From IMG/VR virus record IMGVR_UViG_3300028888_000003: a stretch of DNA of 47,370 nt; one strand, 5' to 3'. Of the stretch, positions 1 to 47,370 are shown in pieces. A model generated the notes under the pieces. The model worked only from the letters and a program-made list of their open reading frames with translations. It did not search any database and was not told where the DNA came from. Made by a program: the position numbers and the translations under genes. Every line of letters starts with the position of its first letter. The first letter of the stretch is position 1. The stretch is from a virus (Duplodnaviria > Heunggongvirae > Uroviricota > Caudoviricetes).

Positions 1-1811
1 CATTATCTTAAAAAAGAAGATAGAAAGATACATAAAGCATATTTAAATGCACAGAATGGTGATAGAGAAGTTGATGATTTCTATGCAACAACTTATATGA
101 TGGGAACAGAAGAACTTGAAAGTTTCTTCCCATATCTTAAAAGAGAAGATTTAGATTTAGCATATAGCTATATAAAAGAAATTGAAAATAAATGTGAGAA
201 TTTTTCAATTCTTAAACCACTAAGTATTCCTTCGCTTCCATGGAAAAAAGTACCTAAACTTTATCCTGTTCAATTAACTGAATATTATAATAAAATGCCG
301 ACGCTATTAAAATTTTTAAACTCAGATCATAAAAGCGATAGATATTTAGTTAAAGCTGTAATAAATGGAATTATTAATCATCCCGATCTTCAGAATGATG
401 AAGCATATGCTGAAATTGATGCGTGTCTTGAAGACACATGGGTATCATCAGAAGTAAATGGAACTCAATGGAGTGCTTACTTTTTAAATCTTCAGAATAT
501 AGTAAGCAGTTGTTGGGATGCAGGAACTCTTGTAGGACCGTCTCGTGGTTCTGGTGGTGGTTTTATCTTATTATATCTTTTAGATATAACTCAAATTAAT
601 CCTTTAAGAGAAAAGACTCGTTGTTTCCGTTGGAGATTCTTAAATCCTGAAAGACAGTCTCCTTTGGATGTTGACGTTGATATAGAAGGTAGCAGACGCG
701 CAGATGTACTCAAGCATTTGAGAAAAACTTTTGGCGAAAAATATGTATCAAATGTTGCAACCTTCAGAACAGAAAAATCTAAGTCGGCCGTACTTACAGC
801 TGCGCGCGGCCTTGGTATAGATGTTGATATAGCTCAGTATATAGCATCATTAATCCCTGCAGATAGAGGTCAGTTAAGAAGTCTTGATCAATGTATGTAT
901 GGTGATGAAGAAAATGATTGGCCAGCAATTAAACAGTTTGTAATTGAGATGACAGATAATTATCCTGAACTTTGGGAAGTCGCGCGTGGAATTGAAGGTT
1001 TGATTTGCGGTAGCGGTATTCATGCAGGTGGTGTTATATTCGTTGATGAGCCGTTTACAAACTCAACTGGCTTAATGCGCGCACCTGATAATACAATTTG
1101 TACACAGTTTGAACTTCATGATGCTGAAGCAGTTAGTTTGATTAAAATGGACTTGCTTTCAGTTGAAGCCTTGGATAAAATTCATAATTGTATTGATTTG
1201 TTATGCGATTATGGATATGCTGAAAGGAAAGAAACTTTAAAAGAAACTTATGAAAGTTTAATTGGTATATATAATCTTGAGAGAGAAGATCCCAAGATGT
1301 GGAGAATGGTTTGGAATCACGAGATTCAATCATTATTCCAAATGGAAAAACAAAGTGGTATAAACGGAATAGCAATTGCTCATCCAAAAACTGTTGATGA
1401 ACTTGCAGTTTTGAACTCAGTTATTCGATTAATGGCTCCAGAAAAAGGAGCAGAGTTACCTCTCGATATGTGGGCGCGTTATCGTCAAAATATTAATAGT
1501 TGGTATAATGAAATGCGCCGCTATGGATTGAATAATGATGAAATAGAATGGTTAGCAAATCACGATGCGATAACTGATGGAATTTGCGAATCACAGGAAG
1601 GAATGATGTCATTAATCCAAGAGGAAAGACTTGGAGGAAATAGCTTGACTTTTGCAGATAAAGTTAGAAAGGCAGTTGCTAAAAAACAAGGTAAACTTTT
1701 TGAAGAATGTGAGCAGAAATTTTTTAAAACAATTGAAGAAAAAGGTTGTAGTAAAGTTTTAGCTCATTATGTGTGGGATGTTTTGTTAAGAGTTCAGAGA
1801 GGTTATTCGTT
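1..1811 (+). CDS. dnaE: DNA polymerase III alpha subunit (DnaE type), exon 1, 5'-truncated by window
   Basis: Frame is open from base 1 (HYLKKEDRKIHKAYL, PHP region). It carries GPSRGSGGG, RFLNPER and PLDVDVD (Pol III catalytic motif) and ends in RGYSF at the predicted 5' splice site. No in-frame TAG. Confidence 0.95.
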
Positions 1812-2921
1812 TAACTAAAACAAGACGAAGTAAAATCCTTTAAATTGCGGGAAGTTCCTTAGAGCTTTAATAACTAAGTTATATTAGTAATAATATAATG
1901 GCTTTACAGAAAGAGTAAAGGTATAGTAAAATCATTAAAGATTGGATAATCCGCAGCGAAATTTCTTAATTTTATGTATTCTCTCATTAATAAGGTTACT
2001 TATTTATAGGAGGGATATACAATGGGATATAAAAAATTATCAAAAGAACAAGAATTACAACTAATTGAAGAATATCGTAATGGCGCCAGCGTTAATTCCT
2101 TAATGACTAAATATGGTTATAAAACTAAAAAATCTATAACAGATAAAGTTAAAAAATATTATCCACAAGAATATGAACAAATTATTCAAGAAGCTTAGGA
2201 TAATAGACGAGGATATACTTATTCTCTTGAAAAAATCTCAAATCCTTTTGATGCTTATTTAATAGGTTTATTACTCACTGATGGCTATTTATTAAGCGAT
2301 CGTGATGGTATTGGATTGGATATGTGCGATAAAGATGTTATAGAATATGTTGCTAATAGCATTGGAACTACTTATAAGTCTTATAAATAGTCTGGAAATA
2401 GATAGACTAAATATAGAGTATTAATTACTATTCCAGGTATTCAACAACAAGTTGCTCGTTTTGGAGTTATAAAAGATAAAACACATATAATTCCTAGACC
2501 GCAATTATTAGAAGAAGAGAAAATTTTCATTCCATATATTATTAGAGGAATTATAGATGGCGATGGTTGTGTAACAAAAACATCATATGGCAGTCCTCAA
2601 TTTTATATAGTGACTATGTCAAAAGAATTTGCAGAATGGATACAAGAAGTTTTAATAAAAAATTTATTTATGGAAGATATCCATTTAATTCAAAGACCAC
2701 AAGATCATATATATAAAATTGAAACAGCAAATTAGTTCAATATATTGAAATTAATTGCTATTGTATATGATAAACCTTTTGGTATGAGTAGAAAATTTAT
2801 AGAATTAAGAAAGACGTTCAGAGACTATAATAAGGACTTTCTTATTGAAGAAAATAAGAATGATGGTATAGTCCAGACCCCAACAAATTAAAATTGGCTT
2901 AGGAAACTAAGTGGGGTAAGG
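1812..2921 (+). mobile_element. Group I self-splicing intron with homing endonuclease ORF
   Basis: Core motifs: P AATTGCGGGAA (~1843-1853), Q AATCCGCAGC (1948-1957), R GTTCAGAGACTA (2816-2827), S GGTATAGTCC (2865-2874). P1 is exon TTCGTT paired with GACGAA (1824-1829), giving a U.G pair at the junction. P10 is ACAA (1820-1823) with exon-2 TTGT. P8 is TTCTTATT/AATAAGAA and P9 is CTTAG-GAAA-CTAAG. Terminal G at 2921. Confidence 0.93.
2022..2891 (+). CDS. Double-motif LAGLIDADG homing endonuclease (289 aa, 4 in-frame TAG read as Gln)
   Basis: RBS AGGAGG before ATG 2022. Motifs AYLIGLLLTDGY and YIIRGIIDGDGC. In-frame TAG at 2196, 2388, 2403 and 2733, with TAA at 2889-2891. Absent from the code-11 ORF track. 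Confidence 0.9.
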
Positions 2922-4440
2922 TTGTAGGGCTCATACGTTAGCATATAGTTTTATTGCTCTTCAAGAAATGAATTTGTGTTATAAGTATCCAATAATGTTT
3001 TGGAACTGCGCTTGTTTAATAAATGATGCAGGTGGTAACGAAACCGAAGAAGATGAAGATGAAATTGCAGCAAATTGTGAAGAAGAGCTTTATTATAATG
3101 AAATGGAAGAGTTTGGAGCAGATGATAATGAAGAAGATATTGAAGACTCTTATGAAGAAGAAGATTGTGATGGTTATCCCGCAGAAGTAGTAACCTTAAC
3201 AACTGGAAAGAAAAAGAAAAAAATAAGGGCGACAAACTATGGTAAAATAGCAGCCGCAATTGGTAAAATTAAACAAACAGGAGTTACTGTAAGTCATCCT
3301 GATATAAATAATTCAACTTATACTTTCTCACCAGATCTTGAAAATAATGCAATTCGTTATGGTTTATCTGGAATTGTAAGAATATCACAAGATTTAATTA
3401 AGTTGATTATAGCAAATCGACCTTATAACTCAATTGAAGATTTTTTAGATAAAGTTAAAGTAAATAAAACACAAATGATTAATTTGATAAAGTGCGGTGC
3501 ATTTGATTGTTTTGGAGATAGAGTTAAAATTATGGAATCTTATGTAGATTTAATATCTGATAAGAAAAAACGAGTAACTCTTCAAAATATGAAAATGTTA
3601 TGTGATTTTAATCTTCTTCCAGAAGAATTAGATTTTGAAAAGAAAGTCTTCAATTATAATAAATATTTAAAGAAGAATAAAAGTGAAACAACATATCTTC
3701 TTGATAATATAGCGTATGACTTTTTTGAAAAAAATTTTGATGTGAATTTACTTCAAACCGCGGCGACCGAAAGTGGTTTTGAAATTAAGCAAACCGTTTG
3801 GGATAAAATTTATAAGTCAAAAATGGATAAAGTTAGAGACTATATAAAGCCGCGCCAAGAAGAATTATTAAATGCAATTAATACTAAACTTTATAATGAC
3901 GTTTGGAACAAATATTGTCTTGGTAGCTTAAGTAAATGGGAAATGGAATCAATTAGTTGTTACTTCCATGAACATGAATTAAGCAAACTTAGAAATGGAA
4001 TATATGGTATAAGTGATTTTGGTAGTTTATCTACAGAACCAGAAATTGAATATACATTCCATACAAAAGACGGTAAAGAAGTTCCAATGTTTAGAATAGA
4101 AAGAATTGCAGGAACTGTATTAGATAGAGATAAAAGTAAGAAAACTGTAACTCTTTTAACAACTTCTGGAATTGCGACTGTTAAAATTTATGGCGAAGTG
4201 TTTGCAAACTATGATAAACAAATTTCTGAAAAAGGCGCAGATGGTAAAAAGCATGTAATTGAAAAAAGTTGGTTTTCAAGAGGAAATAAAATTATAGTAT
4301 GCGGTATTAGAAGAGAAGATGGTTTTCAAGCTAAGAAGTATAATAGGACTCCATATCATTTGTGCGAATTAATTGAACAAATTAATGATGATGGTACAAT
4401 AGTAAGTCGAGGAGTTCGCACGGGAAGTGAAGATAATTGA
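2922..4440 (+). CDS. dnaE: DNA polymerase III alpha subunit, exon 2
   Basis: Splicing restores GYSF-CRAHTLAYSFIALQEMNLCYKYP (equivalent to GYxFNxSHxxAY...YP). Followed by PDIN.S, IRYGLSGI, LIKCGAFD and a C-terminal OB-fold. The spliced in-window frame is 1109 aa with a TGA stop. Confidence 0.95.
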
Positions 4441-47041: not shown

Positions 47042-47203
47042 ATGGAAGTGTTTTGGTATATAGTAATTTCACTTATAATCTTCTGCTTAGTTTATGCCAG
47101 TACGCATAAACTTGGAGAAGCCCTTCTGGTCGGAATTTGCTGGCCATTAGGCATACTCTATTTATTTGTGTCTTTGTTTTATGGTGTAGGAAAATATCTA
47201 TAA
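47042..47203 (+). CDS. Small membrane protein (53 aa, two hydrophobic segments)
   Basis: RBS AAAGGA. MEVFWYIVISLIIFCLVYAS...ALLVGICWPLGILYLFVSLFYG, TAA stop. Below the track cut-off. Confidence 0.6.
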   Translation: MEVFWYIVISLIIFCLVYASTHKLGEALLVGICWPLGILYLFVSLFYGVGKYL

Positions 47204-47219
47204 AAAGGAGTTGATTTTT

Positions 47220-47370
47220 GTGACTGTAAAAGAGAGAATAAACCATAGTGTAGAACTAACTGGTGAAGATAAGGCAATTCTTGAGAAAATGGGGTCATTT
47301 TTTGAAGAATTTACGAATAAGGTGGATAATACGTTTTATTTTAAGGGAAGAGAAGGTATTGTGTATAATA
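47220..47370 (+). CDS. Hypothetical protein, 3'-truncated by window
   Basis: RBS AAAGGAG and GTG start. Open to the window end, no TAG. Confidence 0.5.
   Translation, partial: MTVKERINHSVELTGEDKAILEKMGSFFEEFTNKVDNTFYFKGREGIVYN

Follow-up and report, generated by a model that had tools for sequence, protein, structure and literature searches.

TAG encodes glutamine in a complete siphovirus-type phage genome from the ruminant gut

Reassignment of the TAG stop codon to glutamine (Gln) is known in several groups of gut phages (PMC10607447; PMC9523058; bioRxiv 10.1101/2021.08.26.457843), and was the basis of an original prediction for the DNA studied here, a stretch of 47,370 nucleotides (the window) from the IMG/VR virus record IMGVR_UViG_3300028888_000003 (Caudoviricetes). 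The prediction held that TAG is read as Gln throughout the window, and our analysis bears this out. The Phassvirus group, proposed by Babkin et al. (2023; PMC10607447), comprises genomes of ~133-138 kb with a siphovirus layout and a tape measure protein of more than 3000 amino acids (aa). TAG is used as Gln in 37-41 of their open reading frames (ORFs), including those for the terminase, portal, tape measure and tail proteins. These genomes encode 28-36 tRNAs, two to three of them with anticodon CUA, but lack a dedicated synthetase, and the monophyletic group intermingles recoded genomes with standard-code ones (PMC10607447). A pattern of TAG-poor early and TAG-rich late genes is general in recoded gut phages, and the future sense codon is already rare as a stop in standard-code relatives, before recoding (bioRxiv 10.1101/2021.08.26.457843). 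In crAss-like phages, code 15 was proven by metaproteomic peptides (Peters et al., 2022; PMC9523058).

The genome that contains the window adds a distant ruminant-gut lineage to the known phages in which TAG encodes Gln; the phenomenon itself is already well documented. The best named match to its portal protein is phAss-1 (GenBank OQ749652; 31% identity over 87%), assigned to the 'Caudoviricetes code 15 clade' in the NCBI taxonomy, and all named portal relatives infect Bacillota. Features shared with phAss-1 and the Phassvirus group include the genome size, siphovirus layout, large tape measure, late genes with TAG as Gln, a CUA tRNA and the occurrence of both codes among relatives. However, with a portal identity of ~31% the phage is neither a member of the same genus as phAss-1 nor a near relative, and it comes from sheep and bovine gut rather than human gut. 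Also unlike the Phassvirus group, it has 8-10 tRNAs, one of them a CUA tRNA with a non-canonical T loop. As in the clades of Borges et al. (Lak, crAss-like, Jade, Sapphire, Agate and others; bioRxiv 10.1101/2021.08.26.457843), a suppressor tRNA and close standard-code relatives are present, and the genome size and animal-gut source resemble those of the Agate clade as described. Unlike in some Lak, Agate and Jade phages, no release factor RF2 gene and no code-change operon by the lysis cassette were found in this genome. Late genes with TAG as Gln are shared with the code-15 crAss-like phages, but those are podovirus-like, peptide-validated Crassvirales with Bacteroidota hosts, whereas the phage described here belongs to another order and its recoding is read from the sequence. 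A more distant analogue is E. coli supE, a tRNA-Gln with anticodon CUA that suppresses TAG in part, in cells where it is still a stop codon. The phage tRNA resembles suppressors of this type in its CUA anticodon, weak or unpaired 1:72 pair and G73, but here the whole late proteome would depend on suppression.

The window is the reverse complement of G000:C1:16749-64118, where G000 is a single 139,076-bp virus record whose terminal 127 bases are identical at both ends. IMG/VR lists it with direct terminal repeats and a completeness of 100%. It is a siphovirus-type phage genome of ~33% G+C from the ruminant gut: the runs holding the window sequence are labeled sheep gut, and relatives at ~7% divergence are present in bovine and other gut metagenomes. 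The plus strand of the window, to ~11.6 kb, carries genes for replication and nucleotide metabolism (a two-piece polymerase, a glutaredoxin-like protein, dUTPase and a RuvC-like resolvase). From ~11.6 kb on, the minus strand carries the packaging, head and tail module. We hold it to be very probable that this is a complete phage genome in which TAG encodes Gln (NCBI table 15) and TAA and TGA are the sole terminators, with a phage CUA tRNA as the most likely decoder and with recoding probably acting as a switch to late gene expression.

Stop-to-stop frames of at least 100 aa were scored over the window for each code variant. Such frames cover 0.596 of the window under code 11, 0.663 if TGA is read as sense and 0.953 if TAG is read as sense. 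Coverage with TAA as sense is 0.89, but this is achieved through 164 mostly overlapping frames in AT-rich DNA. Under table 11 there are 35 frames of this length, and fragments fuse once TAG is sense. The fused frames include those of 3671 aa (83 TAGs), 1437 aa (13), 709 aa (17), 647 aa (14) and 450 aa (12). A greedy, non-overlapping gene call was made for the whole 139-kb genome. Code 11 gives 209 genes that average 154 aa, at a density of 0.689, and reading TAG as sense gives 163 genes that average 255 aa, at a density of 0.893. The densities for TGA and TAA as sense are 0.736 and 0.849, the latter with more, shorter genes. Genes become both fewer and longer with TAG as sense only, among the code variants tried.

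In the window, we identified 40 tightly packed genes of at least 60 aa, fewer than the ~45 originally counted, and 23 of the 40 hold 192 in-frame TAGs. Genes interrupted by TAG account for 70% of window residues. The original statement that all genes end in TAA or TGA is correct, although this is true by construction of the gene call; alignments to standard-code relatives, which reach the ends of the joined frames, provide meaningful support for the gene ends. Across the genome, TAA terminates 124 and TGA 39 of the 163 closely spaced genes. The 351 in-frame TAGs are spread evenly along genes without a pile-up at 3' ends (41, 41, 35, 48, 43, 32, 28, 27, 33 and 23 in ten position bins), the few that fall in the last 10 codons being indistinguishable from stops.

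If the TAGs were real stops, the genome would have to be defective or mis-assembled, or the genes genuinely split. Consistent with this, the code-11 fragments are each open on their own, and two PHROG families of 'unknown function' match pieces of the terminase only. Yet the genome, at 33% G+C, has 351 in-frame TAGs, and a frame such as the one of 3671 codons is free of TAA, TGA and frameshifts. TAA and TGA make up 4-8% of codons in the three minus strand frames, so that a frame of this length lacking both is not expected by chance. Homology to intact ORFs also spans the TAGs. Single high-scoring segment pairs (HSPs) to uninterrupted standard-code ORFs cover 97-100% of the terminase, the portal, the 450-aa protein, four virion proteins and RuvC, and span every TAG in them: 14 in the terminase, 12 in the 450-aa protein, nine, seven and five in three virion proteins, and three each in the portal and RuvC. 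These alignments run through joined frames that contain no TAA, TGA or frameshift, and the breaks are in-frame TAGs beyond which the frame continues, as had been proposed. The four sequences quoted in support of that proposal (asterisks mark TAG) are exact: RVLGLD*AT in the RuvC-like protein, EPN*QRIYMTSAG in the terminase, MGVS*REL in the portal and M*QQY*K*QEV* in the tape measure, the last from the reverse complement of 27908-27943. An independent sheep-gut RNA library yielded contigs with zero differences over 32561-34355 and 37221-42444, TAG-bearing genes included. Thus, the TAGs are not an artefact of a single assembly. Given this identity, and given a genome that is complete with terminal repeats, it is extremely improbable that the TAGs act as stops. 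The two PHROG families (phrog_15503 and phrog_24618), which match just terminase residues 97-270 and 414-634, were probably built from code-11 fragments of recoded terminases.

A search of IMG/VR with the terminase returned 37 related loci at 56-63% identity. In an open-frame test most of these use the standard code, and cover gained with TAG as sense was seen only in L001, L021 and L023. All genes of the genome, with X at each TAG, were aligned to stop-to-stop frames of the related loci, and the codon opposite was read. Of some 1400 aligned cells in standard-code relatives, 342 hold CAA and 150 hold CAG, the two predominant codons. A Codetta-style score over 54 TAG columns (at least five standard-code relatives each) was +29.0 nats for Gln and -77.4 for the next residue, Lys. 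In a control, the procedure assigned 61 of 61 sense codons correctly. For a conservative version we took one observation per column and brought in all of the G004 genome; G004 is a standard-code relative, 97% complete, whose density stays the same (0.899, versus 0.906 with TAG as sense). Over 90 window columns this gave +40.5 for Gln and -12.3 for Lys. The share of columns with Gln as the plurality residue is 35.2% for TAG, 32.8% for CAA/CAG and 1.6% for all other codons. Because their rate matches that of CAA/CAG columns, TAG columns behave as true Gln columns, and the expected enrichment opposite TAG is confirmed. Among TAG columns conserved at 90% or more, 14 of 17 are Gln. Near-invariant Gln columns, each with 20-37 standard-code relatives, include terminase 158, 282, 407, 503 and 563 (32-37 relatives), portal 428 (Gln in 32 of 33), and several columns in virion proteins; column 381 of the 450-aa protein is Gln in 27 of 27. 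The TAG columns of the tail and tape measure genes were read against G004 only.

Reading of TAG as some other amino acid (e.g., Glu, Lys, Tyr, Trp or pyrrolysine), or ambiguously, was also considered. Many TAG columns are variable, where Gln is followed in frequency by Glu, Lys, Ser and Arg, and a few conserved columns count against Gln. Three of the 17 well-conserved TAG columns show a different residue, a class to which terminase column 371 (Lys) and column 133 of the 220-aa protein (Arg) belong, and column 367 of the 450-aa protein is dominated by Gly. In a host without glutaminyl-tRNA synthetase (GlnRS), moreover, the tRNA would first receive Glu, followed by amidation, and ARAGORN labels CUA tRNAs as 'Pyl'. 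However, Gln leads the next residue by 106 nats, and by 53 nats in the conservative version, with all sense codons recovered by the same test. The residue spectrum opposite TAG is also close to that opposite CAA/CAG, likewise when G004 alone is used. We read the non-Gln columns as ordinary substitutions, and consider an amino acid other than Gln very unlikely.

We identified a gene for a tRNA with anticodon CUA outside the window, at G000:C1:107086-107160. The Rfam tRNA model matches 107086-107157 at 36 bits (cut-off 29), and the predicted tRNA has a full cloverleaf with anticodon loop CUCUAAA. ARAGORN found no tRNA in the window and eight elsewhere in the genome, none with anticodon CUA; it did not find the CUA tRNA in the window or the whole genome at default or relaxed settings. 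A fast-filter cmscan of an 801-bp locus at the gathering threshold also missed the gene, which was recovered in evalue mode. In the CUA tRNA the T loop (GGCAGCA; no T54-Psi55-C56) is non-canonical and GG is missing from the D loop (no G18-G19). ARAGORN rejects the tRNA because of these atypical loops, which weigh against its role as the decoder. Other features are a U1-U72 mismatch, G73, G10 and an encoded CCA. The identity set of E. coli GlnRS comprises an unpaired or weak 1:72 pair, G73, G10 and U35, and the features of the phage tRNA would thus point to Gln identity.

G001 is the one complete relative that is recoded (its density goes from 0.649 to 0.919 when TAG is sense), and it too encodes a CUA tRNA. 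That tRNA shares U1-U72, G73 and the anticodon loop with the one described here; its acceptor stem shows compensatory changes and its T loop is canonical. Five tRNAs and no CUA tRNA were identified in each of G004 and G005, which are near-complete and use the standard code. Six-frame searches of the complete genome gave no match to the release factor domains PF00472 and PF03462, or to the GlnRS/GluRS catalytic domain PF00749. Since no GlnRS or GluRS gene was found in the phage, charging is probably left to host enzymes. Judging by its gene content, nothing found in the phage genome would alter competition with host RF1.

Several other tRNA features were noted. A tRNA with anticodon UAG (named Leu), with a short variable arm only, follows 11 nt after the CUA tRNA (locus G000:C1:107086-107248). 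The unusual T arm of the CUA tRNA, GGGGGCAGCAC, is also present in one other IMG/VR contig, L090. The anticodon arm of the CUA tRNA, GCGGT-CUCUAAA-ACCGC, is matched exactly in 48 viral IMG/VR contigs (L081-L128) of 4.6-309 kb, on 40 distinct tRNA bodies including that of this genome. Some of these bodies have long variable arms, and many of the type-I bodies combine U1, a mismatched or weak 1:72 pair and G73. An identical anticodon arm is carried by a 138,252-bp IMG/VR contig. A tRNA with anticodon UUA, and thus a possible ochre suppressor, was identified at G001:C1:12178-12251 (L058; 54 bits to RF00005); the density of G001 is 0.826 with TAA as sense, versus 0.919 with TAG as sense. A 'tRNA-Stop(tta)' reported by ARAGORN -ps80 at G000:130902-130976 was dismissed, as it folds as a plain hairpin.

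TAG accounts for 0.346 of Gln codons in the minus strand late block (16 TAGs per 1000 codons) and for 0.088 in the plus strand block. The replication and nucleotide-metabolism block (1..9677, plus strand) includes nine TAG-free genes of 2938 codons in total, with 80 CAA/CAG codons (P = 2e-15). The few TAGs of the plus strand block sit in a LAGLIDADG insert (1974-2891, plus strand; PF14528; five TAGs) and in RuvC, with the rest at codons 4-18 of two genes and possibly ahead of the real start codons. The gene at 5678-5998 (plus strand) has two TAGs near its N-terminus, possibly upstream of its true start.

This distribution can be accommodated by a model in which an amber-suppressor tRNA(CUA) encoded by the phage would decode TAG after being charged with Gln by host enzymes. 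Because the replication genes are TAG-poor, they would be translatable in a standard-code host that still stops at TAG. The packaging, tail and lysis genes, in which about one third of Gln codons are TAG, would yield full-length protein only after the suppressor tRNA is present, giving TAG a putative role in timing. The most abundant virion proteins avoid TAG. The CUA tRNA gene lies ~3.4 kb downstream of the lysis cassette, which encodes an M23-type endolysin with two TAGs and a holin with none.

Alternatively, TAG may encode Gln without a temporal switch, either by host suppression or constitutively from the start of infection, with the TAG-poor genes reflecting only how strongly they are expressed or how recently they were acquired by descent. 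In the four recoded lineages TAG is also avoided in abundant late proteins (capsid-like, 199-aa and, largely, major-tail-like), which argues for translation efficiency over timing. In addition, a scan around the CUA tRNA revealed no promoter or terminator pattern that would fix the timing of its expression. On the other side, we know of no bacterium in which TAG encodes Gln, TAG is absent from the nine replication genes, and the same early/late split is reported in recoded phage clades with predicted standard-code hosts (bioRxiv 10.1101/2021.08.26.457843). Overall, we regard Gln decoding with no temporal component as unlikely, and favor the model of a late switch.

The avoidance of TAG in abundant proteins is most evident in a TAG-free island within the late module (37390..40551, minus strand). 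It comprises the genes for a capsid-like 378-aa protein, which matches phrog_4088 and phrog_12438, and for 199-aa and 464-aa proteins; the three have 0 TAGs versus 30 CAA/CAG codons (P = 3e-6 at the late-gene TAG fraction). None of the four recoded lineages (this genome, L001, L021 and L023) has a TAG in its orthologues of the capsid-like and 199-aa proteins, whereas their terminases have 14, 4, 14 and 14 TAGs. The major-tail-like phrog_2729 protein (32560-33711, minus strand) has one TAG here and none in the other three. This suggests that suppression costs efficiency. It is possible, although we advance the idea only tentatively, that TAG works less as a simple on/off late switch than as a graded throttle. 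A single odd suppressor tRNA, without a helper release factor or synthetase, may read about one third of late Gln codons, and selection may bar TAG from capsid-like and scaffold-like genes in the four recoded lineages, which are interspersed with standard-code lineages in the terminase tree. TAG may accumulate instead in low-copy proteins (terminase, tape measure, tail tip and endolysin) and in the homing endonuclease.

The head genes yielded little with Pfam, and PHROGs were used instead. The terminase large subunit (42053..43996, minus strand; 647 aa; phrog_2, 1e-22) is covered from residue 6 to 646 by its HSP, and had no match in a sequence search of the PDB. Adjacent to it is the portal gene (40568..42049, minus strand; 493 aa), which matches phrog_2739 over residues 3-490 (2.2e-68). 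The 450-aa protein is encoded upstream of the terminase (45119..46471, minus strand), and its HSP covers residues 1-450. Five virion or tail-proximal genes (31678..36129, minus strand; phrog_2729, phrog_4051 and phrog_6123) encode proteins of 273, 383, 257, 220 and 324 aa with 5, 1, 7, 9 and 4 TAGs, respectively, and align over their full length to standard-code ORFs.

The tape measure gene (20636..31651, minus strand) was identified by matches to PF10145, phrog_4211 (6.8e-45) and phrog_167 (6.9e-37), and 20 of its TAGs fall inside HSPs to the tape measure ORF of G004. At 3671 aa, the protein is longer than its counterparts in G004 (2615 aa) and G001 (2870 aa). With the customary ~0.15 nm of tail per tape measure residue, its length predicts a tail of roughly half a micrometre. 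The remaining tail genes (14175..20632, minus strand) encode a Dit-like distal tail protein of 709 aa (PF05709/phrog_33) and the 1437-aa tail protein (PF06605/phrog_3475). No relatives of the Dit-like protein were identified in the related-locus search.

On the plus strand, the RuvC-like resolvase (10835..11572; 245 aa, three TAGs; phrog_827 and phrog_159) has an N-terminal HNH-like region. It aligns to G004 over residues 1-245, where TAG 15 and TAG 85 face Gln and TAG 78 faces Tyr. An 833-aa ORF that runs off the window start and ends at 1818, and a 490-aa ORF at 2968-4440, both align to one uninterrupted ORF of G004. Thus, the polymerase gene is split here by an insert carrying the LAGLIDADG endonuclease ORF. 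All five TAGs are in the insert ORF, and the flanking exons have none.

An unrooted terminase tree does not unite the truly recoded lineages in a single clade, and the sister clade of L021 has the standard code (support 97/96). The 'recoded' label used for this tree took in three single-TAG loci that are not truly recoded, and hence the result is qualitative and gives no count of origins. TAG terminates only 7 of 126 genes in G004, in line with the report that the codon to be reassigned falls out of use as a stop before recoding takes place.

The chief value of the result is for annotation: the genome and its recoded relatives need to be annotated under table 15, as table 11 breaks the genes that hold most of the window residues. 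Default tRNA finders can overlook the suppressor, given that ARAGORN failed where the Rfam model succeeded. The atypical tRNA and the graded avoidance of TAG across gene classes are modest leads, and the finding as a whole opens no new question. As most of its members use the standard code, the family is useful for learning how often recoding arises and which genes take up the new codon first. If TAG does act as a throttle, this family, whose recoded and standard-code members share 40-60% protein identity, would provide a natural series on how a code change starts.

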